Shown: in pieces, positions 15,852 to 50,016 of the stretch
How positions within the stretch are numbered: the stretch's first letter is position 1
Layout of the letters: the number at the start of each line of letters is the position of its first letter
Source of the DNA: a virus
DNA: 64,000 nucleotides
IMG/VR virus record: IMGVR_UViG_3300007504_000003
Coordinates: 32,001-96,000 of that record
Strand: one strand, 5' to 3'
Notes under the pieces: model-generated
What the model was told of the DNA's origin: nothing
Seen by the model: only the letters and a program-made list of their open reading frames with translations
Databases searched by the model: none
Translations under genes and position numbers: made by a program

Positions 15852-16502
15852 ATGCCGAACCCTTCCCTGAACCAGATTCTTGCTAACCTGCCCGCAGGGA
15901 CTCAACGGGTGCAGGTGGTAGACGCCTCTGGGAAGACGAAGTGGAGGGCTCCAGATCAGGTCCGGAAGTCGGACGTGATTGCGATGAAAGGAGGAGCCCC
16001 CGTAGTCATGCGCGGTGCTCCTGGCCGCCCCGCTCGGGTGGAGTTGCCCCCCGCCTCGGACGAGGTCGGAGAGGTATGTCGGCAGAAGAAGGAGGCGATT
16101 CGGGATGACGATCTGCGGGGCAAATTGGCCCGGGACCCCAACCAGGATGTGCTCCCGGTAATCATGCAGGGGATCGCGGAAGAGGCCGCGAGTCTGAAGT
16201 TTGAGCGAGAGGAAGCAGAGCGGCAGGGGGAGCAGACCGCGATGATCTCTTCCCGGCGAGTCCGAGCCCTTACAGCTCTCGGGGATGCCTGGGTCAAGAG
16301 GATGGAGAGGACGGCGACAATCGATCTGGAGGGGGACCAGTTCAAGCTCCTCTTCCGATTCGTTTTGGAGACTTTCCGCGCGGTTTTGGAGGACTCCGGG
16401 GTTCGCCCCGAGCTGGTGGAGACCATCTTCACGAGGATGGGTGAGAAGCTCGACGACGCTTGGAAGGCCGAAGCCCGAGCTAAGATGCGAGGGAAGTCGT
16501 GA
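15852..16502 (+). CDS. probable terminase small subunit
   Basis: Directly upstream of and overlapping TerL; about 216 aa, helical. Confidence 0.45.
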   Translation: MPNPSLNQILANLPAGTQRVQVVDASGKTKWRAPDQVRKSDVIAMKGGAPVVMRGAPGRPARVELPPASDEVGEVCRQKKEAIRDDDLRGKLARDPNQDVLPVIMQGIAEEAASLKFEREEAERQGEQTAMISSRRVRALTALGDAWVKRMERTATIDLEGDQFKLLFRFVLETFRAVLEDSGVRPELVETIFTRMGEKLDDAWKAEARAKMRGKS

Positions 16503-19500: not shown

Positions 19501-19828
19501 CCAGGCGGAGCATAAGAGCAAGTATGTCACGGTGGTAGAGGCTCCTCCTGGGCGGGACAACCACGATGACCTCTCGGATGCTGTGGTTCGGATGGTGTGG
19601 CTGGCCTCTCAGTCCATCGGAGAAGGTCGGCATCTCGCGACGGGGGGTGGCCCACGTCCAGGTTCGTTGAACAGGCACCCGAATCCCGGATCCCTGTCCC
19701 GAGCACGCCGTAAGGCTCTCCTGGGTGGGAGTTCCCTGAAGCGTATGGATCCCCGTAAGGCGAGGGCGGGGGGGATGAGTCCATATCGGGGGCTGGTGAT
19801 GGTCTCCCACAAGAAAAAGAAGAGGTGA
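16499..19828 (+). CDS. terL: terminase large subunit containing an intein
   Basis: Spliced Walker A GRRSGK/T, Walker B VILDEVAHF, ISSP coupling motif, nuclease GFDFA...D; about 659 aa after splicing. Confidence 0.92.
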   Translation: MSLADLARNVGRTTTTQGREVADIITFIEAPWGLDFKLFPVQRVILKVHYGLALDDNEFDYPLDAPVPEDHPHYDPEVLDHDGYYKHRLVISDWQRKNYQYLTEAGYLRYLHDDGRCNVREVVPGHERREMILSVGRRSGKCLKAGSLVLTSKGVLPIESLGDPEGPEHQPCRITVAQEGRQTTAESAYFYNGGVREIRDLKTYCGFRLGGTPNHRIKVMSPEGFVVWKYLGDVEEGDFVAIHRGTNLWPQEYLDVSPYWSDLGRKDLSLPTHLTEEWGLLLGALVGDGSWTRDRVVELTVACPEFRVEMKALWTRLFGGFKEQGVGHSPKTTRIQFHSLGARQFLHDLGWVYDADRRSKMVPWSVMQSTAPVVRAFLRGLFETDGGMESNGKVVSFCSASERLAHEVQTLLLNLGIVSRIRAKWNKTYERNYYILIVRGLRHRQMFAERVGFVSRRKMEPLWAGLKSSSREGGNSESIPYLREWGSKLLASVPTSKPGQGWSRSDLRGVMGNTIKPSSTEQMTYPRLEKTLAEARRLGADQEIVQHLQEIYDLDYFFDPVVSVEQGEEAVYDLNVPQGSMFVANGMTNHNTTISACIAAYETYKLLLKGDPHRYYGLPHSNVIQLISVATDKDQAGLLYREVAGHFKSCDFFSPYMANNTMSYANFQTPYDIDQYGSYADDPKARSSIKITFRSCVAKGLRGAGNILVILDEVAHFTDAGQSGADEVYQAVTPSTSAYSPKDPADKRLPIGEVEGRIILISSPLGKTGLFYDQYTLGFQPGPSENMICVQAPTWEVNPTIPAHEFEKHYLKDVRVFFTEYGAVFSDRTRGWIENEDDLLACIDPARRPRFRGRSRFPHYLGFDFAMVGDASAVAIGHVEDRNVVVDFVDSIQAGEGQYADVDRLRMEWVADWLKDLSQRFYLVNGMFDQWAGLPLEQALEDRGLTQIRAEHFTAPLSSRIYRNFYNMMQERRVVLYDWPRPVDEHGIEQHCPYIAEMLTLQAEHKSKYVTVVEAPPGRDNHDDLSDAVVRMVWLASQSIGEGRHLATGGGPRPGSLNRHPNPGSLSRARRKALLGGSSLKRMDPRKARAGGMSPYRGLVMVSHKKKKR
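16922..18271 (+). mobile_element. intein with LAGLIDADG homing endonuclease (450 aa) in TerL
   Basis: Starts CLKAGS, ends THN-type NHN/T; LLGALVGDG and FLRGLFETDG motifs. Confidence 0.92.
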
Positions 19829-20102: not shown

Positions 20103-20426
20103 ATGCCAACACGAAGCCACGCCCGCAATGCCCCGAATGAGCGAGAGAAGCGTCTTCTTGTTCATCTGGTGCGTGCTCAGAGAGAGCTGGACTCCGCTCT
20201 GAGGCTTTGTCGGGAGGCTGCTCGTCGCGATGAAAATCCCGAGCGGAAGAAGGCTTATCGGAGAATGTCCGTGAACCTGATGCGTCTACACAGGCAGGTC
20301 AGTGAGATTCAAGGGACTCATCGGATTCAGGATCCGGTGTCCCCGGCGACCCCTCCCCTGAGTCGGGATGCGTTTTCGAGTCTGGTCCGTGGGGTTCAGG
20401 CAGACCTTGGGGTGACTGATGGCTGA
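20103..20426 (+). CDS. hypothetical helical protein
   Basis: ORF overlapping the portal start. Confidence 0.5.
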   Translation: MPTRSHARNAPNEREKRLLVHLVRAQRELDSALRLCREAARRDENPERKKAYRRMSVNLMRLHRQVSEIQGTHRIQDPVSPATPPLSRDAFSSLVRGVQADLGVTDG

Positions 20427-23400
20427 TGAACCTACGACAGGCTCGGGGTCTCCCCCGGGTAAGCCGCCACGTCGTCTCGCGTCGATGGGTCCGGATCTGT
20501 CTGAGCAGGAGGGAGTCCCGGTGAGTCGAGTGAAAGATCGGAGCAAGGTCCGAGTCGGCAAGCCGAAGAGGCTCGTCCGGGCTTCCTCGATGCGAATGGG
20601 CTACAGCAGCTCAGGGCTCGGGTCGGCCAGCACTGTGGATGCGGCTCACGGGAACTACTACCACCCGGAGCTGAGCACCGATTTTCTGGAGCTGCCCCAG
20701 AGTCAGCAGGAGCAGTGGAACTTTTATCGGCACTTCTACCGGTCTCATCCCTTCGTGGGGCAGGCGCTTGATCTCCATACGGAGTTGCCTCTGTCGAAGG
20801 TCCGGATCTCGCCTCCTAAGGCGAGGAACCGGGATTTGGCGATGGCGGCTTCGCGGTTCTGTACTCGCTGGGCACAACGAATCAAGCTGCTCTCTCGTCT
20901 CAGGGAAATCGTCCACGAGTATCACCTGTTGGGCGTGGTGAACATCTACGCAGAGGATACCTCTCCGGATATGCCGGATGAGGTGCGGTTCCGTTCGGAC
21001 ACGTACCTGGAAGAGACTCCAGATGGAGAACCGCTCCTCAGGACAGAGCGACGGCTCCGGGAGGACGCCAACGAGCGTGCCGTTGCGTGGTTGAAAAAGA
21101 ACTACAAGGGGTGGACAGCCCTGCGGGTTCTTCCACCTGAGCAGGTGGATGTAGAGAGCTTCCCTTTCACTGATGAGAAGCTGTTTAGTCTCCGCCCAGA
21201 CAAGCGGACTTTGACCCTGGTTGACCGGGCTCGTGGGGGGGATCGTCGAGCACGTCGGGTGTTGGAGTCCATGCCTGTGGAGGTGGTCAAGGCTCTACAG
21301 GATGGGGAGGCTATCCCTCTCAACACGGATCCGGACGCCGGCTCCTTCATCTACCACATGGAGCGAAAGCGGTCGCAGTACGAGAACCGCCCCCACAGCA
21401 TGTTGGAGCGGTGCATCCTCCCAGGCACCCCCATCACGGTTCTTCGGAACAACACCATACTTGAAGTACCTGTCGAGCTGGTCAACGTCGAGACCGATCT
21501 CCTGCTCACGCATACCGGAGCCTTTCATAAGGCTGAAGCAGGCTCCCGCCCTGTAGCGGAGGACATTACTGTTCTTTGGCTCGATGGCGAAGACCGTCCC
21601 CTATGCCTCACCTCAGACCACCCGCTCCTCCGTCTTGACGACGACAGTTCTGAGAAGTGGGTTTACGCCGGGAATCTCAAGGAAGGTGACACCCTCCGAG
21701 AAGCCCACCCGGTCCCTACTTCAGGACACCCTGAAGTCATCGATCTCGCTGCTTGGTGGGAGAATAAGGGCTCGCTTCAGGTTGAGCGTCGAGTTCGGGA
21801 CAACCAGCAAGGTCTGGTTGTTGACACCACCCGTGAAGTTCGGGTAGCCGAAGTCATGGCGGATGAGGAGGGCCTTACGGTCCACTTTGAGCATGACCAG
21901 GACGATGTAGGACGTGTCAGAACCGTCGAGAACGACCGGCGACTTACTCGTTGGCTCAAGTCCCTCAAAGAATCAAAGACGGCGTCCTCGACGGCTGTGG
22001 CCGCCGTTACGGGGCTCACCAAGTCCGAGGTCCAGAACGCTGTCCGTCGTTTCGAGAGAGATGTGCCTGCCTTCCATCGGACAGTCGAGGGGCGAAAGGT
22101 CACTTGGTACCCTCTCCCGGAGACTGCCACCTCCCCAGGCTCAGTCGTCACCAGAACAGAAACCAGCTCTATTCACCAGATCCCGCTCACCCCCGATTTC
22201 ATGTACCTCCTGGGTACATGGTTCGGAGATGGTTGGGCTTGGAAGGCAAAGGGCAAGTTCCTCAACACAGTTTGCCTTGCTTGGTCTATCGATAAGAACG
22301 CCGACAAGCTCCGGTCTCGAATCCGAGACCACCTGGAGACCTTCTTCGGGGCAGATTCCGTGGTCGAGGGCAACCTGTTCTCTGGTTCCGGCTCCTCTAC
22401 AGAGAATCTCCGGGTTGAAGATTCCTTGTTGGCTCGGTGGTTTTACGAGGAGTTCGGAGGATCGGCTCAGACCAAGACAGCCCCCAAGTGGGTGTTCGAC
22501 CTTCCTGAGCAGCACATCTTGTCCTTCCTCCAGGGTCTTCTGGACACCGATGGTTTCTGTCGAGCAGGCCGGGTCTCGACTGCTCTGGTTCAACTGGACA
22601 ACGAGACTCTCATCCGTCAGGTCCATCTGCTATGCAGCCGAGTCGGGATCAAAACACAAGTGAGACCTGTTCGCCGGGAAGCCCGCAGTTGGACACGCAC
22701 CTGGGTGACGACGGAAGGGGTTCAGGAGAAGACTTACGACTACGAGCCTAAGACCTTCTGGCAGGTGTCCTGCACCCGACATGAGGATGTTCTCAAGTGG
22801 GTCTCCGGGACCATCAAGGGTGCCGAGGTCAACTGGCCGGAGAGGAACCACTCCTGGGGGAGCCCGTTCCAAGACGGGTGGCTGACCCGGAAGGTCAGGA
22901 AGGTCGAGACCGTCTGGTACGAAGGGCTTGTCCACTCTTTTGACGTTGAAGTAGATTCGAGCCTTGTTGCTCTAAGTGTCTGTATTCACAACTGTATTCG
23001 GACGCTCGTCCACCAGGATAAGTTGCGACAGGCAAATGCTTCTATCGCCTCTCGGCATATGACTCCGGTGAGGATCGTCTGGGCGGAGGATATGGACGCC
23101 GCGGACACGGAGGCTCTTCGCGATCAGGTCGATATGGCTCTCGCGGATCCAGATTTCTCCATCGTGGCGAACTTTGAAATTCGCTGGGAGGAGATGGGGG
23201 GAGGACAGGGGAACCGACTCCTTGAGACCTCCCAAGAGTATGACCGGGCGGATCGGGAGCTGTACGCCGGCCTCAGTGTCACCGAGTCTCTTCTGACAGG
23301 AGAGTCAACCTACTCCGCCGACAGGACGAGCCTGGAGGTTATCAACACCCGATACATGTTCCTTCGGGAGTTCCTTCAGGACTTCGTTCAGGACTGCCTA

Positions 23401-23787
23401 TTTGAGCCCATGTGCCGTCGAATGGGTTTTATCGAAGAGGATGAAGATGGGGAAGAGGTGGTCCTGACTCCGCTTCTGAGCTTCACCCGGTTGGGCATCC
23501 GGGACACTCAGGACACCTTCGACGCCTTCATGAATCTCTACCAGAAGGGTTCACTCCCGGTGGAGACCATCTATGAGTTGCTCAACATCGATCCGGTGAC
23601 CGCGACTGAGAAGCTCAAGGAGGACTCCATGACGCTTCGGGACGCGACCTTCAACGAAGTCTTCCGAGGTCTCTATAGCGAGGTAGCTCGACAGTTGGTT
23701 GAGGGCTCTGACGCCGTGGATAAGATCGCGAAGATTCTGGGGCTGGAGTACGAGAAGCCGAAGGAGGACTCTGGAGGGAGGTTCTAA
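20419..23787 (+). CDS. portal protein containing an intein
   Basis: Follows terL; FYRSHPFVGQALDLHTELPLS helix, acidic C-region; about 595 aa after splicing. Confidence 0.78.
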   Translation: MADEPTTGSGSPPGKPPRRLASMGPDLSEQEGVPVSRVKDRSKVRVGKPKRLVRASSMRMGYSSSGLGSASTVDAAHGNYYHPELSTDFLELPQSQQEQWNFYRHFYRSHPFVGQALDLHTELPLSKVRISPPKARNRDLAMAASRFCTRWAQRIKLLSRLREIVHEYHLLGVVNIYAEDTSPDMPDEVRFRSDTYLEETPDGEPLLRTERRLREDANERAVAWLKKNYKGWTALRVLPPEQVDVESFPFTDEKLFSLRPDKRTLTLVDRARGGDRRARRVLESMPVEVVKALQDGEAIPLNTDPDAGSFIYHMERKRSQYENRPHSMLERCILPGTPITVLRNNTILEVPVELVNVETDLLLTHTGAFHKAEAGSRPVAEDITVLWLDGEDRPLCLTSDHPLLRLDDDSSEKWVYAGNLKEGDTLREAHPVPTSGHPEVIDLAAWWENKGSLQVERRVRDNQQGLVVDTTREVRVAEVMADEEGLTVHFEHDQDDVGRVRTVENDRRLTRWLKSLKESKTASSTAVAAVTGLTKSEVQNAVRRFERDVPAFHRTVEGRKVTWYPLPETATSPGSVVTRTETSSIHQIPLTPDFMYLLGTWFGDGWAWKAKGKFLNTVCLAWSIDKNADKLRSRIRDHLETFFGADSVVEGNLFSGSGSSTENLRVEDSLLARWFYEEFGGSAQTKTAPKWVFDLPEQHILSFLQGLLDTDGFCRAGRVSTALVQLDNETLIRQVHLLCSRVGIKTQVRPVRREARSWTRTWVTTEGVQEKTYDYEPKTFWQVSCTRHEDVLKWVSGTIKGAEVNWPERNHSWGSPFQDGWLTRKVRKVETVWYEGLVHSFDVEVDSSLVALSVCIHNCIRTLVHQDKLRQANASIASRHMTPVRIVWAEDMDAADTEALRDQVDMALADPDFSIVANFEIRWEEMGGGQGNRLLETSQEYDRADRELYAGLSVTESLLTGESTYSADRTSLEVINTRYMFLREFLQDFVQDCLFEPMCRRMGFIEEDEDGEEVVLTPLLSFTRLGIRDTQDTFDAFMNLYQKGSLPVETIYELLNIDPVTATEKLKEDSMTLRDATFNEVFRGLYSEVARQLVEGSDAVDKIAKILGLEYEKPKEDSGGRF
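21412..22992 (+). mobile_element. intein with LAGLIDADG homing endonuclease (527 aa) in portal
   Basis: CILPGT...CIHN/C; YLLGTWFGDG and FLQGLLDTDG. Confidence 0.9.
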
Positions 23788-25602: not shown

Positions 25603-28600
25603 ATGAATCAGCATGTTCAGGTCGCTGCGGAGCTTCGCCGTCGCATGGGGAGTCTGGTGTATACCAGCTCGGGTGTGTTGTATGTCCTGACACCCGAGAC
25701 GCTGGCTCAGTTGTCTGAGGGTGACCAATGGGTCGGGCTGGTGTCTTCGGACGATCTGGAGGGGGCTCACCGGCTTGTAGAGCACTGCGGCGGGGGTGTA
25801 CTCCGGGAGCCTTCGTCGGGGACCTATGCGGTAGAGACCGTTGCCAAGTGGGGTCGTGTAGGGGCTCAGGTCGGGACTGATACCGCCGCGGTCTGGGCGA
25901 TTGCTCCGGAGCAGCTCCATCATTTTATCGAAGATGAGGGGCTCGCTGGCCTGGATTGGCAGGTGTGGGCGAATCGCTGGGAGGATCTGGAGTCGTCCTG
26001 GCGTGCTCATGGCGGCGCCGTCTTTCATACGGGTGGGGACGGGGGGTTTGAGGTTGAGGTTGAGGGAGCGGTGCGTAGTCTGGGTTTGACTCGCCCCTAC
26101 GGTACCCCGCAGTACCGGGAGGCTGGCTGGTGGGCGATCACTCCAGAGGACCCTGGAATCAACCCGCCGCCCGTGGATAAGGGCGGCCTCATGAACGCGG
26201 TCCCTGGCGTCGATCCTGATGAAGGGGCGTTGTATAACGGGGACGGCCCAGCGGACATGATGGAGGCAGTCCTCGATGAGATCGACATGATCTATCGAGA
26301 GGCGTGGGGTCGTGGGGCCACCGTGGCGGAGATGGATGCCGTCTGGGAGTTTATCTTTCGCGGGTACCGGAAGGGAGCGAAGGCGTCGGGCTGGAATGTC
26401 TGGGTAGACAAGGCGGTCGAGTTGACCGGCGTTCCAATGAAGGTTCTCCTCCTTTGTCTGGACGAGTCGAGGACTCGGGACGCTGTTCGCCTTTGGCGTG
26501 AGGGGTCTGAGCGCGGGGACTTTACGGGGTTCGGGGAACATATCAAGGCGTGTGTCAGTCTCGCCTGGGATGATTCTTCTTTCATGATGGAGCAGCTTCC
26601 AGCGAAGCCGGATTCGGTCAAGTTACTCCTGGCTCGCCAGTACCGGCAGGCGTTTGATGAGGAGCGTTTGACGGAAGCTGGTAAGGCGATCGAAGGGTTC
26701 TCTCTCGGGATGGCTCTGGCAATCACGCAGGGGTTTGTGAGCACCCACCCGTTCTTCGACCTGGGGGAGATCCGACGATTCATCCAGATCCGGAAGAAGT
26801 ACCACGGGGTGTTTACGGCAGCCGCCGCTGTGCTGGCGGAGTATTTCGGGGACGCCCCTCGATTCCAAGCCGCTATCCCGGGTCTCAGGCGGATCTCTAT
26901 CATGCCCCCGGCTCAGGTTCGGGGAGCCTTGTCCGCGGGCGTTCAGGCATTCCGGTCGCTAGGTCGTGTTCGGGTGTCGGACCTCCCCGGGTACGAGTAC
27001 CAGTCTCCTCCGCGATTGGTAGTTCAGTCCTTCGTCGCGATTCACCGAGCCTTGCGGCTCTCGGGTCTTGAGGAGCGGGGGGACTACTACCGGGCATTCT
27101 CGGACCTGGAGACCCTTCTGGACGTCTTCCTCCGGAGTCGTTCGACTCCCGCCCCCGTGAAGACTCTCTTCCGTAAGCTGAAGCTGCTGGGCATCCCCAG
27201 GGACAGCGCAGACGTGCTCCACTTCGACGCAGACCCCGGGGCTTGGTTTGACCTGACTTCGGACCAGAGAGCGGGAATCCGTAGAGAGGTTCTCGGCCTC
27301 CAAGATGAGCTGTCCTCGTTGTTCACTCGGGACATGGACGTGGAAGAGCGTTCTGCGGAAGCAAAGCGGCTGATGGGGGCGTTGTCGCAGATTCAGGCCC
27401 GAGCCGGCATCCACCTTGCTCATCTCATGGAAGAGGACCAACCTCCTCTGGACAAGGTGCTTCGATCCGAGGCTCAGGTGAACCGGGACGGGCCGACAGA
27501 ATACGTCTTGGATTCGTTCAAGAAAGACCTCCTTTCCTCCTGGGAGGAGAGCCCCTCTTTCCGGCCGAAGCTCCTCAGTAAGCGAGAGTTGGGGAAGCTG
27601 TTCACGACGCTGGACAAGGTGAAGACGTTCTCGACGATGGAGCGGGTGATCAAGACTGCGGTTCGTCGTGGTCTGCTCCATAAGACCGCTCTGGAGACGC
27701 TGACGAGCAAGCTGGATAAGGCTCGTCGAAACAAGGCTCTTCGGGACAATCCTGTCCTGGCCCCTCTCCAGTGGGAGCCGATGACGGAGCAAGAGTTTGT
27801 CGCGGCTCATGATGCGGGAGGCGTTGATTTCCGAGGAGATGCTTGGACTGAGGAGCAGAAGGCAGAGGTGCTGGGCCGGGCGAGCCGGGCGATTGTGGAC
27901 TTGGAGGGCGTCTTCGGGAAGGGGTTCTGCGGCAGGCACGCCAGGAAGTTGATGTTCCGGTTCCACGAGGGCTCCGGGACGGGGTCGGGAGCCCTCGCTC
28001 ATTACTTCGGGTGGGAGGATCGGAATCGCTGGCAGCCTCGGGTGAGCTTCGGGGAGGATTTCGACGGGCTATTAGCCCACGAGCTGTCTCATTACTTTGA
28101 AGACCTCCTGGCCTTCCGGATTGAGAAGGCGACCAACCCGGACATGCCAGAGTACCAGTATGGGGACGTAGCCCATGGCTGGGGAGACCTCTTCGGGAGG
28201 ACGGGGACCTCTCTCCGTCAGTTTGTGGAGAGGTCGGGCAATAGCACGATGGGGAAGGCTCTTCAGGAGCACTTCCCGGAGTTCTTGGAGCTGATGGCGA
28301 CGGTGGTGTCCACGCCCGATTATGCTCGGTGGGAGGACAAGATCGGCGGTGCCCTCAGTGACGCTCTCTATGAGGCGATCACTGAGGTGACGGGTCAGAG
28401 CCCCTATGCCGAGGGCAACGAGCAAGCTCGTGGTTGGATGGATGCTCAGTACCAGTCAGACCTCCCTCCGGAGGTACTGGAGGCAGCCAAGCGGAGGGCG
28501 ATTCGGCTACGGGATGGGGATCCGCGGAAGCTTACCTACTACCACTCCTCCCCAGAGTGCTGGGCTCGGCTCTGCGAGCAGTATGTCTACACGAAATTGG

Positions 28601-29346
28601 CCCGCCAGGGGATCGCGAATCCCTGGCTGACGCAGTTGACCTATGACGTGGATGTGTTGGACCAGTTCGTAGAGGAGGCCACCTTTGAAGAGCGGATCGA
28701 ACCTCTCATGGACGCCGTGTTCAACAAACTCCGGGACCGCTCGATCATCGCCCGGGTCGTTCGTCGAGAGCAGGAGCTATCTCGGATAGTTGATAGAAAG
28801 TTGATCCTGTTAAAAACAGGTACTTACGAGCGTCTCCTCCGCTGTGGGGCGGCTGAAGGAGATGGTTCTCGGGTTGGTGTCTTCATCCCCTTGCCCGCGA
28901 ATCTGGCTCAGCAGTTCCCCTCTCTCAAGGAGGATTCGAGCCCTGTTCATGTGACCTTCCTGTACGCCGGGAAGGTCTGGGAGGAGGGGTTGTTCATGGA
29001 GATTCTGAGGCGTCGGCTAGGGGAGCTGGAGGCTCCTGTCCAAGCGAGGCTGGACGGTCAGGACTTCTTCCGCAACGCAGACGGCTACATCCCTCATGTC
29101 CGGGTTCGGTTCGATCAGGATCTTGCTCGGGTTCGGAAGCTAGTGATCGACGATCTTCGGGAGGCGGGCTGGACTCTGGCGGATAGGAGTCAGATGGTGT
29201 GGCGGCCTCATGTCACTCTCGGCTACCAGAAGCCCCACTCGGAGCATTATCAGGGTGAGGTCCCGACAGGCGGTTGGGAATTTGATCGCTTGGAAGTCTG
29301 GGGCCTGGAGCGTAAGAAGGTTTTGCTCCTGGGCAAAAAAGCCTAG
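25603..29346 (+). CDS. polyvalent protein: unknown N-region + LPD1-like zincin + 2H phosphoesterase
   Basis: LAHELSHYF and YYHSSPECWARLCEQYVYTKL (LPD1-like); two HVT motifs at 28948 and 29209. Confidence 0.75.
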   Translation: MNQHVQVAAELRRRMGSLVYTSSGVLYVLTPETLAQLSEGDQWVGLVSSDDLEGAHRLVEHCGGGVLREPSSGTYAVETVAKWGRVGAQVGTDTAAVWAIAPEQLHHFIEDEGLAGLDWQVWANRWEDLESSWRAHGGAVFHTGGDGGFEVEVEGAVRSLGLTRPYGTPQYREAGWWAITPEDPGINPPPVDKGGLMNAVPGVDPDEGALYNGDGPADMMEAVLDEIDMIYREAWGRGATVAEMDAVWEFIFRGYRKGAKASGWNVWVDKAVELTGVPMKVLLLCLDESRTRDAVRLWREGSERGDFTGFGEHIKACVSLAWDDSSFMMEQLPAKPDSVKLLLARQYRQAFDEERLTEAGKAIEGFSLGMALAITQGFVSTHPFFDLGEIRRFIQIRKKYHGVFTAAAAVLAEYFGDAPRFQAAIPGLRRISIMPPAQVRGALSAGVQAFRSLGRVRVSDLPGYEYQSPPRLVVQSFVAIHRALRLSGLEERGDYYRAFSDLETLLDVFLRSRSTPAPVKTLFRKLKLLGIPRDSADVLHFDADPGAWFDLTSDQRAGIRREVLGLQDELSSLFTRDMDVEERSAEAKRLMGALSQIQARAGIHLAHLMEEDQPPLDKVLRSEAQVNRDGPTEYVLDSFKKDLLSSWEESPSFRPKLLSKRELGKLFTTLDKVKTFSTMERVIKTAVRRGLLHKTALETLTSKLDKARRNKALRDNPVLAPLQWEPMTEQEFVAAHDAGGVDFRGDAWTEEQKAEVLGRASRAIVDLEGVFGKGFCGRHARKLMFRFHEGSGTGSGALAHYFGWEDRNRWQPRVSFGEDFDGLLAHELSHYFEDLLAFRIEKATNPDMPEYQYGDVAHGWGDLFGRTGTSLRQFVERSGNSTMGKALQEHFPEFLELMATVVSTPDYARWEDKIGGALSDALYEAITEVTGQSPYAEGNEQARGWMDAQYQSDLPPEVLEAAKRRAIRLRDGDPRKLTYYHSSPECWARLCEQYVYTKLARQGIANPWLTQLTYDVDVLDQFVEEATFEERIEPLMDAVFNKLRDRSIIARVVRREQELSRIVDRKLILLKTGTYERLLRCGAAEGDGSRVGVFIPLPANLAQQFPSLKEDSSPVHVTFLYAGKVWEEGLFMEILRRRLGELEAPVQARLDGQDFFRNADGYIPHVRVRFDQDLARVRKLVIDDLREAGWTLADRSQMVWRPHVTLGYQKPHSEHYQGEVPTGGWEFDRLEVWGLERKKVLLLGKKA

Positions 29347-29365
29347 TTGGTTCGTATAGAGGGAC

Positions 29366-30634
29366 ATGTCGCCTTACGCTCCAAGAATCGCGGACCTTTG
29401 GCTGTCCCGCTCTGCGGATTCGGCTGCCCACGTTCGTTCAATCGCGTTGATGCGGTTTCTCTCCCGGCTGGCTCTCCGGCTGGGGAGAGCCGTGGCTGAG
29501 AACGTCTACGTGGTGGGCGGGGCGGTTCGGGATTTCGTCTTGGACCGTCCGATCAAGGATATCGACGTGGTGATCGACTCCGTCTCTCTCGGGAGAGACA
29601 GCGAGTGGTTCGCCCGTCAGATTTCCGCAGCCGTCCCGGCTCGGACGTCGCTGGTGACCAACAACTATGGGGTCGCCATTCTCACCATTTCGGAGTCCTG
29701 GGTTCTGGAAGGTGTGGAGATGCAGGGCGAAGTGATCGAGATCGCCAATGCCCGGACGGAGTCCTATGGGGGTGCTTCAGGGAAGGGCTACAAGCCCTCG
29801 GAGGTCGCTCCGGCGAGGATTGAGGATGACGTGGCACGCAGGGAGTTGTCCTACAACACCTTGATGATCCGGCTCCTCCATCTGGCGGACGGGCCGGATA
29901 AGGCAGACATTCTGGACCTGACGGGCTGCGGCCTCAGTGACCTGGAAGCTGGGATTATGCGTTGCCCGGCGGATCCCAACATTGTGTTCTCCGACGACCC
30001 GAGCCGGATGATCAGGGTGATTAAGTTCGCTCTTCGTTACGGGCACCGTCTCACTGAGGACACTCGGGCGGCGATCCTCAACAACGCGGAGAAGATCAAG
30101 AACATCCCGGGCGGGCATCTCATCAACCTCCTGACGGGGATCATCCTCCGTGAGGCGACCTGGAAAGAAGCCCTTCAGTGGATGCAGGATCTGAACCTCC
30201 TGGCACCGATCAGGGAGATGGTGCTGTCGGACGAGCAGCTCAAGACCTCTCTCATCAACCACATCCGGGGTTACCGGTTGGAGATGCTGTTCAGCTTGAT
30301 GGATCTGGGATTGCCGGTGGGCTACCGCGTGCGTTTCCTCCCTCGGGCGGATCAGAGTCATCTACGCGACTCTATCGGTCACTGGCCGGCTGAGGAAGCG
30401 TGGGGGTTCGTGGAAGCCTTGCGGAACCCTGGCGTCATCATCCAGGACAAGAAGTTTTTCCCTGAACTGGCTCGGGAGCATGGGTTCCTCGGCCCTCAAA
30501 TCGCGGGGTTCAACCGCGAGGTGTACCTGCCCATAGCTCGGAGGATCCTGATGGGGGATCCCCACATTCGGTTGAGCCCGGCCCGCTTTCGACGAGAGAT
30601 CGCTGACCGAGTCAGGGCACGTCTTCGGCGGTAG
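29366..30634 (+). CDS. CCA-adding/poly(A) polymerase-family (class II) nucleotidyltransferase
   Basis: VGGAVRD, DIDVV, ARTESY, RRELSYN (D to E), DDPSRMIR; no HD domain seen. Confidence 0.9.
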   Translation: MSPYAPRIADLWLSRSADSAAHVRSIALMRFLSRLALRLGRAVAENVYVVGGAVRDFVLDRPIKDIDVVIDSVSLGRDSEWFARQISAAVPARTSLVTNNYGVAILTISESWVLEGVEMQGEVIEIANARTESYGGASGKGYKPSEVAPARIEDDVARRELSYNTLMIRLLHLADGPDKADILDLTGCGLSDLEAGIMRCPADPNIVFSDDPSRMIRVIKFALRYGHRLTEDTRAAILNNAEKIKNIPGGHLINLLTGIILREATWKEALQWMQDLNLLAPIREMVLSDEQLKTSLINHIRGYRLEMLFSLMDLGLPVGYRVRFLPRADQSHLRDSIGHWPAEEAWGFVEALRNPGVIIQDKKFFPELAREHGFLGPQIAGFNREVYLPIARRILMGDPHIRLSPARFRREIADRVRARLRR

Positions 30635-30657: not shown

Positions 30658-31782
30658 ATGAAGGATTACCCGCCCTCTCGTCTTGTAGCCTCTCGTTGGT
30701 TGGTTGCATCCAAGTCGAAGTACCGATCCGTTTTGCGGCGGGGTCGCTCTCGCGTGGAAGCCGCCTACCGGCAGGATGATTGGACTGCGGCTGCGGCTGC
30801 CTATGAGCAGGCGGCTTCGGCTCTCCGTCCCCTCGGGGGACTTCTGGATGGGGTTACCGTCGAGCGGCAGAGTGAGCGGAGGAAGCTGAAGAACGTCCGC
30901 CGGAACCTGTCTCTGATCAAGCGGTATACGGCTCCTGGCTTCCTCCGAGATACCGAGTATCAGACCGCCTATTGGGCTTGGAGTAGCTGGGAGACGCTAG
31001 AAGATGCCGTGAAGGCTGTTCTGAGAGTCTGGGAGCGAGTGACCGGGTACCAGAGCTTGACTCGCTCCTTCCAGCACGGCCCTTTCACGGTTGAGAATCA
31101 CTACGGCTACCGTGAGGAGGAATTGGCGGCACCCTTATCGCTCCTCTCAGGAGCGATGGATCAGATCCGCTCCCGGGGGTTTGAGGAGGTCTTGTACGGG
31201 GTCGTTCAAATAGTGAGCCCGAAGAGCGGGGGGTTCTGTGGGAGGTACTTCAAGAATGGGGACTTCCTTCAGATCAACGCGGATTGCCAGTACCGCTTAG
31301 GGGCTGTTCATACGGTGGTCCACGAGCTAGGTCACCGGTTCTGGTTCCAGAAGATGACGTCCGCACAGCAGAAGGCATATGACGACGCCTATTCGGGTAC
31401 AGCAGGCGTTGTGTTCTCTCTGGGGGACCGGGAGGACATGTGGCAGGCGTTCAAGGAAGCCGGGTACACCCTCCGAGGTGCTCATCGGCGGTTGAGGAAC
31501 CCCGCCTTGCGGGAGCATCTCTCGGATTATGTCCGGGAGAGGAGGAAGGGGTTGTTGATCGTCCCGGACCCGCGGACGGGGTTCATGGAGGCCCATGCTC
31601 AGAGAGCTTTCGTGGTCCCTTCTGTGAGAAACTTCTTCCTGGGCCGCCCCGTCTCCGTGAGTGATTACGCTGAAACAGGCGGGGTGACGGAGGATTTCGC
31701 TGAGGTCTTCGCGTTCTTCTGCACCGGGAAGAGGGTTGACGCAAGGGCTCTGGAACGCTTCCGGGACGCGACCGGCCGCTAG
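30658..31782 (+). CDS. zincin-like metallopeptidase-domain protein with tag
   Basis: VVHELGHRF ... SDYAETGGVTEDFAEVF; LVASRWL at 30682. Confidence 0.75.
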   Translation: MKDYPPSRLVASRWLVASKSKYRSVLRRGRSRVEAAYRQDDWTAAAAAYEQAASALRPLGGLLDGVTVERQSERRKLKNVRRNLSLIKRYTAPGFLRDTEYQTAYWAWSSWETLEDAVKAVLRVWERVTGYQSLTRSFQHGPFTVENHYGYREEELAAPLSLLSGAMDQIRSRGFEEVLYGVVQIVSPKSGGFCGRYFKNGDFLQINADCQYRLGAVHTVVHELGHRFWFQKMTSAQQKAYDDAYSGTAGVVFSLGDREDMWQAFKEAGYTLRGAHRRLRNPALREHLSDYVRERRKGLLIVPDPRTGFMEAHAQRAFVVPSVRNFFLGRPVSVSDYAETGGVTEDFAEVFAFFCTGKRVDARALERFRDATGR

Positions 31783-31805: not shown

Positions 31806-33305
31806 ATGGAAACCCTCGCCCACGCTGAAGCCTCTGACGGCTCGCTCCCTATCATGGAGCCCCTCCACAATGTGCGGGAGGTGGCTAAGCAACTCATCCT
31901 GTTGGAAGACCACCTCTTTCATCCTGAGCGGCACTGCGAGGATTGCATCACCAAGCATCTCCTGACCGCTGAGGCGTTCGCAGAGGAGGCCCGTTCTCTC
32001 GACGTGGCGGGAGAGTTTTCCGAGCTGCTGAACCCTCTCCCAGGGGTCTTGAGGCGGCTGTTCCGAATGTTTCAGGAGGAGAAGCCGGTGCAGGAAATCG
32101 CTCAAGCAGCTCGCAAGTTGAGGAAGCGATTGATGCCGGAGACCCTCAAGGTGCGGGTGGCCTCCCGTTGGTTGTCGGCGGAGCGAGGTCGTCAGGTTTC
32201 GGACCTGCCTAGGTTTTTGATGGTGGGTAACCGCATTCTGAACAACTTGAACGCTTTGAAGCGGGCTGAGGCTGAGGGCCGCCATGACCGGTCAGTAGTC
32301 TGGGCTCTCAACACGGATTGGTCTAGCATTGTCTCAGCGGGTCGGCGGTGGTCAGAGGAGGTGATTGAGACTCGGGCTACTCCCAGGGGTAAGGCGAAGA
32401 AAATTGAGCTGGCGGTTCGGGCTTTCCAGGTCAGCCGTACTCGCGACTCAACGAAGTGGCTCAAGAAGAACCGTCGCCACATTGAGTTGCTGATTGAAGC
32501 GGAGAGGTGGCCCCTTCGCTCTGAAGCTTCCGACGATTTGGCGAGGCAGTTCCAGCAGGGTTCGTTTACCGTTCACAACACCATCCACGCTGAAGGAAAC
32601 AAGCTTCAGGCTGTCCGGGATATGATCTCTGCTGCGTCGAGGGCCCTCCCCAGGACGGGGCTCGCAGGTGCTCAGAGCATGGCTTACGGCGATCTGTTGA
32701 TTGTGGGTCAGATTGGCCGGGCGTCCTGGGCTGCGTGGTACACCCCGTCGAAGGACAATATCGCGATTCGCCCCTTCATTCGGGGGATTTCTGCGGCTGA
32801 TGCTGCTCGGCATCTTGTCCATGAGATTGGACACCGGTATTGGCATAAAGTCATCGCCCGAGATCGGGATCTGGTCCGGGCGTGGCACGCTTACCACCGG
32901 AGGCTGGGGAGCCAGCCGGTAGACCCTGTGGCTTTTCCGGGGGTTGGGGAACAGCTCCCTCACCCGATCCACATGAAGATTCTTCCTCCAGGGAGAAAGC
33001 GTAGGAAGAGGGTGCTTATTCAACCCACGGTCAAGGCTCGGGGCTCTGAGTGGGTTGAGTTTGAGGAGGCTCCCGGGGTTCGCTATAGCGTGATTTCAGT
33101 TCAGCGGATTCTGGAGAACACTGGTCGGACAGGTCGTTTCCCCTCTCCGTATGCGGCCACGGATCCGCAGGAGCATTTCTGCGAGGCGTTTTCCTTCAAG
33201 GCGTTTGGAGAACTTTCCCCTGAAGGGGTGGAAGCGTTTGACAGGATCTTTTTGGGCCGCACGGCGGCGGATCGGGTAGCCGATCGCTGGAGTGAGCAAA
33301 GCTAG
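31806..33305 (+). CDS. Cys/His N-domain + zincin-like metallopeptidase, two tags
   Basis: LEDHL..PERHCEDCITKH; LVHEIGHRY...SPYAATDPQEHFCEAF; RVASRWL at 32154, RVADRW at 33273. Confidence 0.75.
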   Translation: METLAHAEASDGSLPIMEPLHNVREVAKQLILLEDHLFHPERHCEDCITKHLLTAEAFAEEARSLDVAGEFSELLNPLPGVLRRLFRMFQEEKPVQEIAQAARKLRKRLMPETLKVRVASRWLSAERGRQVSDLPRFLMVGNRILNNLNALKRAEAEGRHDRSVVWALNTDWSSIVSAGRRWSEEVIETRATPRGKAKKIELAVRAFQVSRTRDSTKWLKKNRRHIELLIEAERWPLRSEASDDLARQFQQGSFTVHNTIHAEGNKLQAVRDMISAASRALPRTGLAGAQSMAYGDLLIVGQIGRASWAAWYTPSKDNIAIRPFIRGISAADAARHLVHEIGHRYWHKVIARDRDLVRAWHAYHRRLGSQPVDPVAFPGVGEQLPHPIHMKILPPGRKRRKRVLIQPTVKARGSEWVEFEEAPGVRYSVISVQRILENTGRTGRFPSPYAATDPQEHFCEAFSFKAFGELSPEGVEAFDRIFLGRTAADRVADRWSEQS

Positions 33306-48464: not shown

Positions 48465-49127
48465 ATGGCTTTGCTTGGACAGGCGAGCGGTGCGTGGACT
48501 GAGTCGAGCAGCGCCCTGAGGATCCTCTACAAGGGGATCAACAACTCGGTGGGCATCCTGACCGATGATAGCTTCACGCAGACCAACCCGCCGATCGTCA
48601 CCGCAACCTCTACCATCGCTTCCAACGTGGACACCAGCCTCCTGGGCGTCCTCAGCGGCTCGGTGGCCTTCACCCGCCCCGATGAGGGCAGCAACTACAT
48701 CGGCGGCAACGCCGAGGGTCTCGCGACCGCCAGCCACGAGCTGATCGTCCGTCCCCTGGGGCTGTTCATCAACAACGCGGCGGGCAACTCTTTCGAGAAC
48801 CAGCCGGCGTCCGCCAGCGGCAAGGGGCCCTACGTCTCCGGCCAGGGCACCTACGCCAGCCAGCTCTTTGAGACCCAGCTCCTCAGCGGCACCGGCCTCA
48901 CCGGATCCGCTGGCGACGATATCAGCTACCTGACGGGCCTCTCCCTGGTGGCGAGCCGCAACGGCTACCTCCAGCCGTCCTACGATCTCACCAACACTGA
49001 GACGATGGACGTGGCTTCTGTGGCTGCCGAGGTCGAGCACGGCCAGTCGGCGTCCACCGTCATCGGAATCCTCAAGATGCCCTCGGATGCCACGCAGGCC
49101 GAGATCGTCTTCGACCAGCGCATCTGA
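48465..49127 (+). CDS. probable head decoration/minor capsid protein
   Basis: Between scaffold and MCP; G/S/T-rich; high-expression codon bias. Confidence 0.6.
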   Translation: MALLGQASGAWTESSSALRILYKGINNSVGILTDDSFTQTNPPIVTATSTIASNVDTSLLGVLSGSVAFTRPDEGSNYIGGNAEGLATASHELIVRPLGLFINNAAGNSFENQPASASGKGPYVSGQGTYASQLFETQLLSGTGLTGSAGDDISYLTGLSLVASRNGYLQPSYDLTNTETMDVASVAAEVEHGQSASTVIGILKMPSDATQAEIVFDQRI

Positions 49128-49140
49128 GGAGGGAGACACA

Positions 49141-50016
49141 ATGGCAAAGGTAAGCAACGCTGTCAAGCAGCGGATCATCAGCGAGTACATCAAGACCCCC
49201 CGCGGTCGTGCTCGCCTCGCAGCCTCCATGACGCAGCCCCTCCGGATGCGTCGGGACTACTCGGCGGTCGGTCGCAAGACCTTCCTCGTCGAGGATCTCC
49301 CCGATGGAGCCCTCCCGATCTACGACAAGGATCCGGAAGTCACCGCCTACGTGGTGGGCGAGGAAGGTGAGAACATCCTCGCCATCCAGAAGCCGCGTCG
49401 GGTGCTCTTCCCCCTGTTCGAGATCGCGTCGAACCCCGAGATCCCGCTCACGCAGATCAAGGAACGCCGGTTCGACATGATCGACCGGGCCCAGGTGCTC
49501 GCGAAGTCGCAGGTCCAGGCCGCCGAGGACGAGCGTGTCTTCGCCGTGCTGGACGCCATCGCGACCAACGGCTTCGACTCCGTGGCGGGCGGCACCAACG
49601 CCGATATCCCCGTCATCGCGCCGCTGTCCGCCGCGGTCATCGCTGACGCGATGGGTCTCGTCGAGCGGCACGACCTCCACGCCGCTCGGATCTACATGAA
49701 CCAGCGGGACTTCACGGATATCCGGAAGTTCGGCCGCGACGTGTTCGACCCCGAGAGCCAGCGGGAGCTGGTCCGCACCGGCCTCGTCGGCACCATCTAC
49801 GGCTGCCAGATCGTGACCTCCCGCCTCGTCCCGGTGGGCACGGTGTACGTGTGTTGCGATCCCGAGATGTTCGGCCGCATCCCCGTCCGCACCGAGCTGA
49901 CGGTGCTCTCGGCCGACGACCCGAAGGCCCGGACCATCGGCTTCAGTATTTTCGAGAACCTCGGTCTGGGTGCCTACAACCCCCGGGGCCTCGCTCGGAT
50001 GACGATCACTCGCTGA
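49141..50016 (+). CDS. major capsid protein (HK97 fold)
   Basis: 291 aa; GAGGAGGG RBS; position; GTIYGCQIVTSRLVPVG C-terminal pattern; followed by a strong hairpin. Confidence 0.82.
   Translation: MAKVSNAVKQRIISEYIKTPRGRARLAASMTQPLRMRRDYSAVGRKTFLVEDLPDGALPIYDKDPEVTAYVVGEEGENILAIQKPRRVLFPLFEIASNPEIPLTQIKERRFDMIDRAQVLAKSQVQAAEDERVFAVLDAIATNGFDSVAGGTNADIPVIAPLSAAVIADAMGLVERHDLHAARIYMNQRDFTDIRKFGRDVFDPESQRELVRTGLVGTIYGCQIVTSRLVPVGTVYVCCDPEMFGRIPVRTELTVLSADDPKARTIGFSIFENLGLGAYNPRGLARMTITR

Follow-up and report, generated by a model that had tools for sequence, protein, structure and literature searches.

A LigT-like 2H phosphoesterase domain beside a CCA-type nucleotidyltransferase in the head locus of an uncultured huge phage: a candidate tRNA 3'-end repair pair

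Two adjacent genes in the head locus of an uncultured huge phage encode a polyvalent-type protein that ends in a 2H phosphoesterase domain (P0001) and a class II, CCA-type nucleotidyltransferase (NTase; P0002). We propose that the two may work in succession, one healing RNA 3' ends and the other rebuilding them, with tRNAs as the most likely substrate, a reading that sequences and structural models suggest and that we hold with middling confidence. Both domains are real and, judged by their sequences, their catalytic motifs look intact, and in relatives they recur side by side or within one polypeptide.

Results

Genomic context of the pair

The window, by which we mean the whole stretch of DNA analysed, is 64,000 nt long and represents positions 32,001 to 96,000 of IMG/VR record IMGVR_UViG_3300007504_000003, a 126-kb fragment estimated to comprise 28% of its phage's genome. 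The features relevant to the pair are as follows, in window coordinates.

20419..23787, + strand: portal gene carrying a LAGLIDADG insert, located upstream of the pair (phrog_16240, E 6e-25; Pfam LAGLIDADG_3)
25603..29346, + strand: P0001, polyvalent-type multi-domain protein of 1247 aa (ORF and translation; Pfam)
28078..28092, + strand: HELSH (HExxH) zincin-like motif, P0001 aa 826-830 (regular expression on the translation)
28531..28737, + strand: LPD1-like segment, P0001 aa 977-1045 (Pfam PF18796, E 4.3e-5)
28852..29343, + strand: 2H phosphoesterase domain at the P0001 C-terminus, aa 1084-1247 (PF13563)
28948..28956, + strand: first catalytic HxT motif, HVT (CAT GTG ACC), P0001 aa 1116-1118 (sequence)
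29209..29217, + strand: second catalytic HxT motif, HVT (CAT GTC ACT), P0001 aa 1203-1205 (sequence)
29366..30634, + strand: P0002, class II (CCA-type) NTase of 422 aa, RRE clade (Pfam, PHROG, AF2)
29384..29404, + strand: RIADLWL, one occurrence of the RVAxR[WY]L peptide tag found throughout the genome, P0002 aa 7-13
29516..29566, + strand: motif A, GGAVRD (from aa 51) to DID (aa 65-67), with carboxylates D65 and D67
29837..29845, + strand: motif B, RRE (aa 158-160) for the canonical RRD (sequence, alignments)
29993..30007, + strand: motif D, DDPSR (aa 210-214), the nucleotide-templating [ED]DxxR (sequence, alignments)
49087..50016, + strand: gene of the major head protein, lying downstream of the array of enzymes (phrog_2522, E 1.4e-52)

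The P0001 gene starts 1.8 kb downstream of the stop of the portal gene, and both genes of the pair are members of an enzyme array flanked by the portal and capsid genes. A read-through P0001-P0002 fusion was considered and rejected, since the P0002 ORF lies in a different frame, begins 19 nt past the TAG stop of P0001 and is preceded by a GAGGGA ribosome-binding site. The neighbouring genes at 30658-31782 and 31806-33305 were rejected as RNA enzymes: both encode HExxH zincins and therefore contribute nothing to a repair pathway.

Because of their position in the portal-capsid array and the presence of the array's RVAxR[WY]L tag on the NTase, P0001 and P0002 are probably head-module cargo that is available early in infection; gene position and the tag are what points to delivery of the pair by injection. 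The tag copy lies in a low-confidence helix (aa 7-16) N-terminal to the well-modelled P0002 fold, and 22 of 91 P0002 homologues have a tag-like heptad at that offset, against 0.006 expected per 45 aa.

A blastn search of the region against 50,697 GenBank phages returned zero matches, and a close cultured relative is therefore absent among them. The 126-kb record contains zero tRNA genes detectable by aragorn, which is uninformative because the record is so incomplete. The same fragment had no match to RNA ligase (PF09414) or Tpt1/KptA (PF01885), and no phosphatase was found within it.

P0001 and its 2H domain

The two HVT motifs noted in the initial annotation were confirmed at the codon level, and Pfam 2_5_RNA_ligase2 (PF13563) covers aa 1113-1234 of P0001 (E 2.6e-8, 34.5 bits against a cut-off of 27; 38.6 bits in the genome search). 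Both histidines and both threonines of these motifs are invariant in an alignment (A3) of 32 relatives, and the domain has 475 representative relatives at E<=1e-3. Its subfamily carries a signature of its own, consisting of an N-terminal strand TGDG..VG.F.PLP and a C-terminal EVWG motif, both conserved. The description of P0001 as an LPD1 protein held only in part: a segment matching PF18796 is present, but its 23.9 bits fall under the Pfam cut-off of 27, and we therefore term it LPD1-like. The HELSH segment, for which no Pfam family match was found, may be a processing peptidase, and the N-terminal modules of P0001 (aa 85-170 and 172-313) reappear in giant ORFs of other huge phages.

The AF2 model of the 2H domain (pLDDT 94.5) has the duplicated alpha-beta 2H fold; VIA matched it to 66 chains at Z>=8, and the chains listed are of 2H fold. 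The top match was the D. radiodurans CPDase (5h7e, Z 15.1), followed by YjcG (2d4g, Z 14.7) and E. coli LigT (Z about 12-13, best 13.2), with LigT/ThpR-type RNA cyclic phosphodiesterases as a group aligning at Z 12-15 over 142-157 residues. Usb1 (Z 11.9) and rotavirus VP3 (Z 11.8) came lower, and the phage BCSR5 phosphodiesterase (Z 8.5), the penguinpox cGAMP phosphodiesterase (Z 8.4) and Acb1 (7t26, Z 8.4, rmsd 4.2, 128 residues) lower again. The modelled fold is thus nearest to the LigT/ThpR-type RNA 2',3'-cyclic phosphodiesterases, with Acb1 more remote, and the Acb1-like reading of the initial annotation is not favoured by this comparison.

Sequence searches with the domain gave a weak match to 1iuh (E 0.0075) and found no similarity to Acb1. 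The domain scored 21.6 bits against the ThpR/LigT equivalog TIGR02258, whose cut-off is 65.7, and is therefore no ThpR/LigT orthologue. It shares the two HxT motifs and the fold with LigT/ThpR proteins (TIGR02258; PDB 4qak, 5ldm, 5h7e, 1iuh, 2d4g), but is set apart as a distinct phage subfamily by its own signature motifs. With Acb1 (PDB 7t26, 7t27) it has in common a phage-encoded 2H fold and a plausible role in early counter-defence; it differs in the weaker structural match and in having RNA-end enzymes as partners, whereas Acb1 is a small stand-alone protein.

P0002, a class II nucleotidyltransferase

The second gene had been annotated as a class II NTase with an RIADLWL tag, RRE in place of RRD and no HD domain, and motifs, Pfam and fold all agree with that description. 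P0002 matches the PolyA_pol head domain (PF01743, E 3.3e-16) and phrog_2244, a tRNA nucleotidyltransferase, and has no HD domain match in Pfam. In motif A, residues G51, G52, A53, R55, D65 and D67 are invariant (alignment A2). The RRE of motif B aligns with the RRD of the Aquifex A-adding enzyme (4wby), and since R158, R159 and E160 are invariant across both clade alignments (54 and 58 proteins), we regard it as a mark of the clade and no defect; the change is a conservative one. In motif D, DDPSR aligns with EDPVR of 4wby; neither clade alignment shows variation at D211 or R214, and D210 is invariant in one of them and almost invariant in the second.

Residues 15 to 422 of the P0002 AF2 model (pLDDT 93.7) could be aligned with CCA-adding enzymes at Z 18-21, so that head, neck, body and tail are complete, the C-terminal half forming neck, body and tail as in class II enzymes (Foldseek, VIA). 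CCA-adding enzymes were the best matches in both searches (3h38, Z 21.1), and the tRNA complex 5hc9 matched at Z 18.2. The ranges were Z 21-19 for CCA-adding enzymes, 19-18 for A-adding enzymes and 18-17 for PAP I (E. coli PAP I 17.7), the CCA-adding, A-adding, CC-adding and PAP I chains spanning only ~4 Z units. The NCBIfam scores were 82.6 bits for TIGR02692 (the best CCA score; cut-off 438.8), 66.6 for NF009814 (cut-off 290), 48.9 for NF008137 (E. coli Cca; cut-off 451) and, near the best CCA score, 76.6 for the pcnB subfamily. Neither these scores nor the fold ranking separate CCA, A and poly(A) specificity. All equivalog cut-offs were missed, and P0002 belongs to a clade separate from the curated CCA-adding equivalogs. 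It has 477 homologues at E<=1e-5, the best 120 of which are 43-65% identical over most of their length, apart from one that is 99% identical.

Linkage of the two enzymes in relatives

The initial annotation had called for a check of co-occurrence across phages, and the two domains were found to be linked. Among 149 representative proteins with the P0001-type 2H subfamily, 34 carry the NTase clade on the same polypeptide, as do 32 of the 75 that are at least 560 aa long. Of the 34 fusions, 21 have the two domains directly next to each other (no more than 40 aa apart), 18 with the 2H domain before the NTase, which is also the gene order in the window, and 3 in reverse. At 33 of 80 NTase loci in IMG/VR (23 of ~59 distinct loci) a 2H domain lies no more than 10 kb away, in every case on the strand of the NTase and in most cases in its ORF; about half of the distinct loci have neither 2H nor HAD within 10 kb. 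The copy in the window is of the split, two-gene form, and the fusion form seen in relatives is the more striking of the two.

Short NTase fusions (~560-620 aa) consist, by Pfam, of NTase with either 2H or HAD_SAK_1 only, and one relative (L001) combines NTase, HAD_SAK_1 and 2H in a single 927-aa ORF. Fusions of the NTase with InPase, RNA ligase, PAP2 and HD were also found, HD in one of 34 relatives. The minimal fusion partners of the NTase are RNA-end phosphoesterases, namely 2H, HAD_SAK_1, PAP2 and, in that one relative, HD. The NTase is further fused to TopIB, GNAT, ferritin-like and Ntn-hydrolase (AAT) modules, and the TopIB-like DNA-enzyme module occurs in 24 of the 75 long 2H proteins. 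Because TopIB accompanies the 2H domain almost as often as the NTase does, fusion alone is weak evidence, and the linkage is partly accounted for by common descent from a single giant architecture.

In GenBank phages the P0001-type 2H subfamily was found in one record, Virus Rctr197k, as part of a 2039-aa protein, with no NTase within 7 kb of the 2H gene. Complex prediction for the NTase with the 2H domain gave scores of 0.00, 0.40 and 0.00, which we count neither for nor against binding.

Near-complete relatives and their tRNA genes

Five relatives of 402-536 kb, estimated to be 76-100% complete, each have 30-70 tRNA genes and, by Pfam, a single PolyA_pol-family NTase. Four of them have one 2H domain apiece by Pfam, and that of the fifth was detected with our own 2H profile, inside the ORF of the NTase. 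The two share one ORF in three of the five, while the NTase stands alone in G004 and G005, ~30 kb and ~19 kb, respectively, from the 2H gene. Many tRNA genes across the sampled clusters lack an encoded CCA, including 12 of 14 in the cluster sampled from G004. In G002, 41 of the 44 tRNA genes of the sampled cluster encode CCA and the NTase is still fused to 2H; the retention of this arrangement despite encoded CCA indicates that de novo CCA addition alone is an insufficient explanation.

Discussion

Proposed function

The initial annotation had offered a tRNA repair pair or an Acb1-like defence blocker as explanations of the locus, and it is the repair half that has gained ground, through the recurrent fusion or adjacency, the phosphoesterase partners and the LigT-like fold. 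As the family suggests, the 2H domain would open 2',3'-cyclic phosphates, which metal-independent RNases belonging to host defence or toxin systems leave behind, to give an end with a 3'-OH and a 2'-phosphate. P0002 would then restore the missing C, C and A residues, and probably also finishes such tRNAs of the phage itself as have no CCA encoded. The further suggestion that 2H replaces the missing HD phosphatase can be retained for the opening of the cyclic phosphate, expected of a 2H of LigT type, but not for its removal: 2H enzymes open the phosphate and leave it on the 2' position, the 3'-OH thus being free (PMC9503650). The leftover monophosphate might be removed by the HAD_SAK_1, PAP2 or HD phosphatase that has been added in relatives.

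A parallel exists in E. coli Cca, in which a class II NTase is likewise coupled to an end-clearing phosphoesterase, an arrangement for healing and then extending. The HD domain of Cca has 2',3'-cyclic phosphodiesterase, 2'-nucleotidase and phosphatase activities. In the window, by contrast, HD is absent, the putative healing domain is on a separate giant polypeptide and motif B is RRE; moreover, the 2H domain would leave a 2'-phosphate whereas the HD domain of Cca also removes the phosphate. The fused relatives of the NTase share a domain vocabulary (HAD_SAK_1, 2H, RNA ligase) with the Swiss-Army-Knife RNA repair proteins with HAD_SAK_1 (Pfam PF10307) that were reportedly described by Burroughs and Aravind in 2016. 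The 126-kb fragment differs from these in having no match to HAD_SAK_1; the control genomes gave none either.

P0001 has the features of the phage polyvalent proteins with 2H domains (PMC5512222), being large and portal-adjacent with a HExxH motif (HELSH), an LPD1-like segment (below the cut-off) and a 2H domain. Iyer et al. [quoted passage not shown] Here, in contrast, the 2H domain shows a systematic association with HAD_SAK_1 and with an NTase of class II, CCA type. The jumbo- and huge-phage CCA enzymes treated in the available portions of Iyer et al. 2021 (PMC7824862) and Al-Shayeb et al. 2020 (PMC7162821) resemble P0002 in being class II tRNA nucleotidyltransferases of large, tRNA-rich phages, and a role in restoring tRNA ends is proposed for them in that portion of PMC7824862; those portions do not describe a CCA enzyme as a head-locus polyvalent module or as linked to 2H.

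Alternative explanations

The two proteins might instead be independent cargo, the NTase being the phage's CCA-adding enzyme for CCA-less tRNAs and the 2H domain unrelated to it, with adjacency arising merely from the way huge phages string together and reshuffle head-module enzymes. The near-complete relatives, with their many tRNA genes, their CCA-less examples and only one NTase of this family, are consistent with that explanation, as are the solitary NTases of G004 and G005, the fusions of the NTase to TopIB, GNAT, ferritin-like and Ntn-hydrolase (AAT) modules, and the frequency of TopIB among long 2H proteins. However, random shuffling would be expected to yield less abutment than is seen (21 of the 34 fusions, with either domain first) and fewer short proteins made up of NTase and phosphoesterase only, the fusion in G002 is retained where most sampled tRNA genes encode CCA, and a maturation enzyme has no obvious reason to be sited in the head module with a cargo tag. 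We consider independent cargo unlikely, although it deserves some weight. Less probable in our estimation is an anti-defence role for the 2H domain, in which it would degrade signal nucleotides of host immunity (cyclic di- or trinucleotides of CBASS, cyclic oligoadenylates of type III CRISPR or molecules resembling 2'-5' oligoadenylate) on the model of Acb1, rotavirus VP3 and coronavirus ns2, with the NTase uninvolved. Such a role was proposed for polyvalent-protein 2H domains by Iyer et al. 2017 (PMC5512222), who saw no link to RNA ligase, arrival together with the DNA would fit an enzyme that counters defence early, and the model does match Acb1, the BCSR5 and penguinpox enzymes and VP3. Those matches are clearly poorer than those to LigT/ThpR-type enzymes, the searches run found no sequence similarity to Acb1, and within one polypeptide the 2H domain is most often accompanied by an NTase of tRNA type and by an RNA-end HAD phosphatase.

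Two further possibilities concern other uses of the RNA end. The pair could be injected to counteract host toxins whose effect is to block, and not to cut, the tRNA acceptor end, such as nucleotidyltransferases of MenT/AbiEii type, which add extra nucleotides, or enzymes of CapRel type, which pyrophosphorylate the CCA end. A Usb1-like 2H domain would then trim or clear the blocked end, leaving a cyclic or 2'-phosphate, and an NTase of the RRE clade, perhaps unusually tolerant of a 2'-phosphate primer, would rebuild CCA. We regard this as highly improbable; if true, it would represent a class of counter-defence so far undescribed. The chances are slimmest that the pair reshapes or destroys host RNA 3' ends early in infection, with the NTase adding poly(A) to host RNAs and so marking them for decay, and the 2H domain serving as a Usb1-like 3' exoribonuclease. 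E. coli PAP I nearly equals the CCA enzymes in fold and the pcnB score is near the best CCA score, Usb1 is among the structural matches of the 2H model, and a Usb1-like RNase role was suggested by Iyer et al. 2017 (PMC5512222). Against this, the NTase is the sole class II enzyme in relatives rich in tRNA genes, many of them CCA-less, and fusions to HAD_SAK_1, RNA ligase and inorganic pyrophosphatase suit repair better than decay. P0002 keeps the templating [ED]DxxR motif, yet this does not decide the matter, as PAP I also keeps it.

Implications

The theme of the locus, as we read it, is the recombination of known parts, and the 2H domain and P0002 are small, well-predicted and easily expressed proteins. 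If the healing and rebuilding function that we propose is correct, huge phages would carry a ready kit for restoring the acceptor ends of tRNAs, probably inside the capsid, as a counterpart, at the opposite end of the tRNA, of the anticodon-loop repair by T4 Pnkp/Rnl1. A large uncharacterised clade of class II NTases would be defined as well, with hundreds of metagenomic members, none of them cultured, and an invariant RRE. In addition, a biochemical role would be gained for the polyvalent-protein 2H domain, for which Iyer et al. 2017 did not choose between RNase and signal degrader.

Genomic setting of the 2H/nucleotidyltransferase gene pair

The source is a single viral record of 126,159 bp, of which the window represents bases 32001-96000. 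Since CheckV estimated its completeness as ~28%, the 126-kb record is a fragment of the genome of a huge phage. Its DNA has ~60% GC and nearly all of its genes are on the + strand. The end of the record (G000:C1:126100-126159) has a run of ~15 G, probably a contig-end artefact of assembly or sequencing. The gene pair under study, encoding P0001 with its C-terminal 2H domain and the nucleotidyltransferase (NTase) P0002, is located in the head module.

Features of the window
16499-19828, terminase large subunit, unusually long (1109 aa), matching PHROG families in separate stretches
20419-23787, portal, 1122 aa, with a LAGLIDADG-type insert
25603 to about 41694, array of large enzyme-bearing genes
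25603-29346, P0001, 1247 aa
29366-30634, P0002, 422-aa class II nucleotidyltransferase
49087-50016, major head protein

The separate PHROG matches and unusual length of the terminase large subunit suggest that it, too, may contain an insert. Directly after the NTase gene are two genes (30658-31782 and 31806-33305) whose products have HExxH zincin-like motifs (HELGH at aa 222; HEIGH at aa 339). In 20 related loci, the domain found at the C-terminus of the 31806-33305 product recurs within the giant ORF that bears the NTase, and the gene array of the window therefore corresponds to a giant polyvalent protein broken up into individual genes.

The 2H domain of P0001

The 2H domain (2_5_RNA_ligase2) spans aa 1113-1234 of P0001 and scored over the Pfam cut-off, and the two HVT triplets that the initial annotation had placed at 28948 and 29209 are exactly there. 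P0001 also has a HELSH zincin-like motif at aa 826 and an LPD1 match at aa 977-1045, just under the Pfam cut-off. The 2H model was confident (pLDDT 94.5), and its nearest structures by VIA Z-score were bacterial and archaeal RNA 2',3'-cyclic phosphodiesterases. Orthology to ThpR was rejected, the TIGR02258 score being 21.6 bits versus a cut-off of 65.7.

Structural comparisons of the two models (Z-scores)
2H, D. radiodurans CPDase: 15.1
2H, YjcG: 14.7
2H, TT0787: 14.1
2H, E. coli LigT/ThpR: 12-13
2H, Usb1, rotavirus VP3 and AKAP18: about 11-12
2H, Acb1, phage BCSR5 phosphodiesterase and poxvirus cGAMP phosphodiesterase: about 8.4
P0002, CCA-adding enzymes: 21.1 to 18.8
P0002, Aquifex A-adding enzyme: 18.9 to 18.1
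P0002, E. coli poly(A) polymerase I: 17.7 to 16.6
P0002, CC-adding enzymes: 17.1 to 16.4

The phage 2H subfamily comprised 475 cluster representatives, which ranged from 188 to 3381 aa and had the domain in an N-terminal, central or C-terminal position. The 2H model also resembled, in BFVD, the 2H domains of large actinophage proteins, whose annotations include capsid morphogenesis protein (one case) and RNA ligase (several), a likeness that fits the 2H-to-MuF/portal fusions of Iyer et al. 2017 (PMC5512222).

P0002 is a complete class II nucleotidyltransferase with a recurrent tag

P0002 begins 19 nt downstream of the TAG stop of P0001 and is preceded by the ribosome-binding site GAGGGA. P0002 has the motifs GGAVRD, DID, RRE and DDPSR. 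The initial annotation had noted that RRE stands in place of RRD, that an HD domain is absent and that the N-terminus carries the peptide RIADLWL; these points, like its other observations on the ORFs and motifs, were all borne out. The RRE motif does not represent a lesion, as every member of both clade alignments (54 and 58 members) has R158, R159 and E160. The P0002 model was confident (pLDDT 93.7) and aligned with class II enzymes from residue 15 to the C-terminus, and therefore P0002 has the whole head-to-tail architecture (head, neck, body, tail). By fold and by sequence alike, its product may be CCA, A or poly(A), and P0002 missed all NCBIfam equivalog cut-offs by a wide margin. The clade is large and metagenomic, with 477 matches at E<=1e-5; the 120 matches listed had 43-65% identity over most of their length, besides one 99% copy, and the best matches among GenBank phages had <37% identity.

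RIADLWL is one copy of a heptad, RVAxR[WY]L, with >12 occurrences in the proteins of this genome, including those at window positions 29384 (P0002), 12420, 8605, 32154, 33975, 35920, 38122 and 40033, and at genome positions 6136, 13466 and 113823 outside the window. Copies are found at either end of unrelated proteins and where their domains meet, and the heptad also flanks stand-alone 2H homologues of other phages. Of 91 NTase homologues, 22 had it where P0002 does, versus a chance expectation of ~0.006.

Linkage of 2H domains and RRE-clade nucleotidyltransferases

Linkage was counted from both sides. Among the best 149 of the 475 2H representatives, 34 had a P0002-type NTase (37-61% identity over the aligned stretch), as did 32 of the 75 2H proteins long enough for both domains (at least 560 aa). 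The two domains were <=40 residues apart in 21 of the 34; the 2H domain came first in 18 of these, as it does in the window, and the NTase in three. On the NTase side, 80 IMG/VR loci on contigs of up to 536 kb were examined, and this type of 2H domain was within 10 kb of the NTase in 33 of them (23 of ~59 distinct loci). The two were never on opposite strands, mostly shared an open frame and were often 4-13 nt apart. Five relatives (G001-G005) of 402-536 kb, estimated to be 76-100% complete, were compared as well. Pfam identified one PolyA_pol NTase in each and one 2H domain in four, and our own 2H profile found that of the fifth at the start of the NTase ORF. Three relatives had both domains in one ORF, and in the remaining two the distance between them was ~19 and 30 kb.

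The most telling evidence on pairing is the shortest fusions, proteins of ~560-620 aa in which the only Pfam domain besides the NTase was either 2H or HAD_SAK_1, the latter a putative RNA-end phosphatase domain known from RNA repair proteins (Pfam PF10307). All three domains were in a single 927-aa ORF in one locus (L001). Eleven distinct loci had a HAD_SAK_1-like domain within or beside their NTase ORF, and 24 of the 149 2H proteins contained one; further partners were inorganic pyrophosphatase, RNA ligase, PAP2 and one HD domain. In P0058 and P0116, two metagenomic homologues of P0002, a different module with two HxT motifs (HHCTIKF ... AHVTVA) lies between NTase and HAD_SAK_1, and these proteins likely combine an NTase, a second type of 2H domain and a HAD domain in one chain.

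Polyvalent proteins mix unrelated enzymes, and as a control, this set of 75 long 2H proteins was searched for other modules of the window. Of the 75, 24 had a TopIB-like module, 18 the small module of gene 34006 and 19 HAD, compared with the 32 having the NTase. Much of the co-occurrence is thus attributable to a giant architecture that recurs (2H, NTase, small domain, zincin, TopIB) and that the window has in a form divided among individual genes. The evidence for a functional link between 2H and NTase, which we rate as moderate, is that the domains directly abut in either order and that minimal proteins with just these two domains exist.

Inserts and splits in related nucleotidyltransferases

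In three related NTases (L074:8669-12562, L075:8267-16690 and L079:6509-14947), an in-frame insert of ~450 aa falls precisely on motif B (RRE; profile positions 157-161), and of 34 ORFs with an NTase, three had Pfam matches to Intein_splicing and LAGLIDADG_3. Intein homing into motif B suggests that the RRE motif is under strong constraint. Elsewhere the NTase gene is split near profile position 255 (L044:9989-13580, L052:9941-12525, L057:9767-13908 and L060:7970-12007). The C-terminal half then continues in a new ORF 0.8-1 kb further on, and just 4 nt further on in L039. Such splits could represent a mobile intron, a homing-endonuclease insertion or a true split gene.

Discussion

We favor a role of the pair in healing and rebuilding tRNA 3' ends. 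Metal-independent RNases of toxin and defence systems leave RNA ends with a 2',3'-cyclic phosphate. 2H enzymes open such a phosphate to a 2'-phosphate (PMC9503650). Opening would give a free 3'-OH, to which the class II NTase would then be able to add back C, C and A, and the HAD, PAP2 or HD phosphatase of the relatives would remove the leftover phosphate. E. coli Cca with its HD domain follows the same healing-then-extension logic, although the phage pair would do so with different parts.

It is possible, with a distinctly lower probability, that the two enzymes are independent cargo and the NTase a plain maturation enzyme. The control counts fit such a reading, as does the finding that related phages G001-G005 (loci L082-L086) have 30-70 tRNA genes and a P0002-type enzyme as their sole class II NTase. 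The minimal two-domain proteins point to the functional link instead. In addition, the proportion of genes encoding CCA in sampled tRNA clusters ranged from 2 of 14 to 41 of 44 depending on the phage; many genes lack CCA but their share varies, so maturation of phage tRNAs is probably part, not the whole, of the NTase role. Degradation of signal nucleotides by the 2H domain, a role put forward by Iyer et al. 2017 and, as the Acb1 idea, in the initial annotation, appears unlikely: Acb1 and the poxvirus cGAMP phosphodiesterase do resemble the 2H model, at lower Z-scores than the RNA phosphodiesterases. Least probable, and by our estimate improbable indeed, is a takeover of host RNA by a poly(A) polymerase and a Usb1-like RNase; both proteins are among the structural matches, with CCA-adding enzymes scoring above poly(A) polymerase I and CPDase above Usb1.

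The individual parts of the proposed tRNA-healing pair are known. 2H domains have been described in phage polyvalent proteins, for which Iyer et al. saw no RNA-repair partner (PMC5512222), and CCA enzymes in jumbo and huge phages (PMC7824862, PMC7162821). The literature searched provided no systematic linkage of this 2H subfamily with the RRE-clade NTase in head-locus polyvalent proteins, part of which Burroughs and Aravind 2016 may cover. The window has this linkage in its split, two-gene form. The portal-to-capsid position, polyvalent architecture and tag suggest that the pair may be packaged in the virion.
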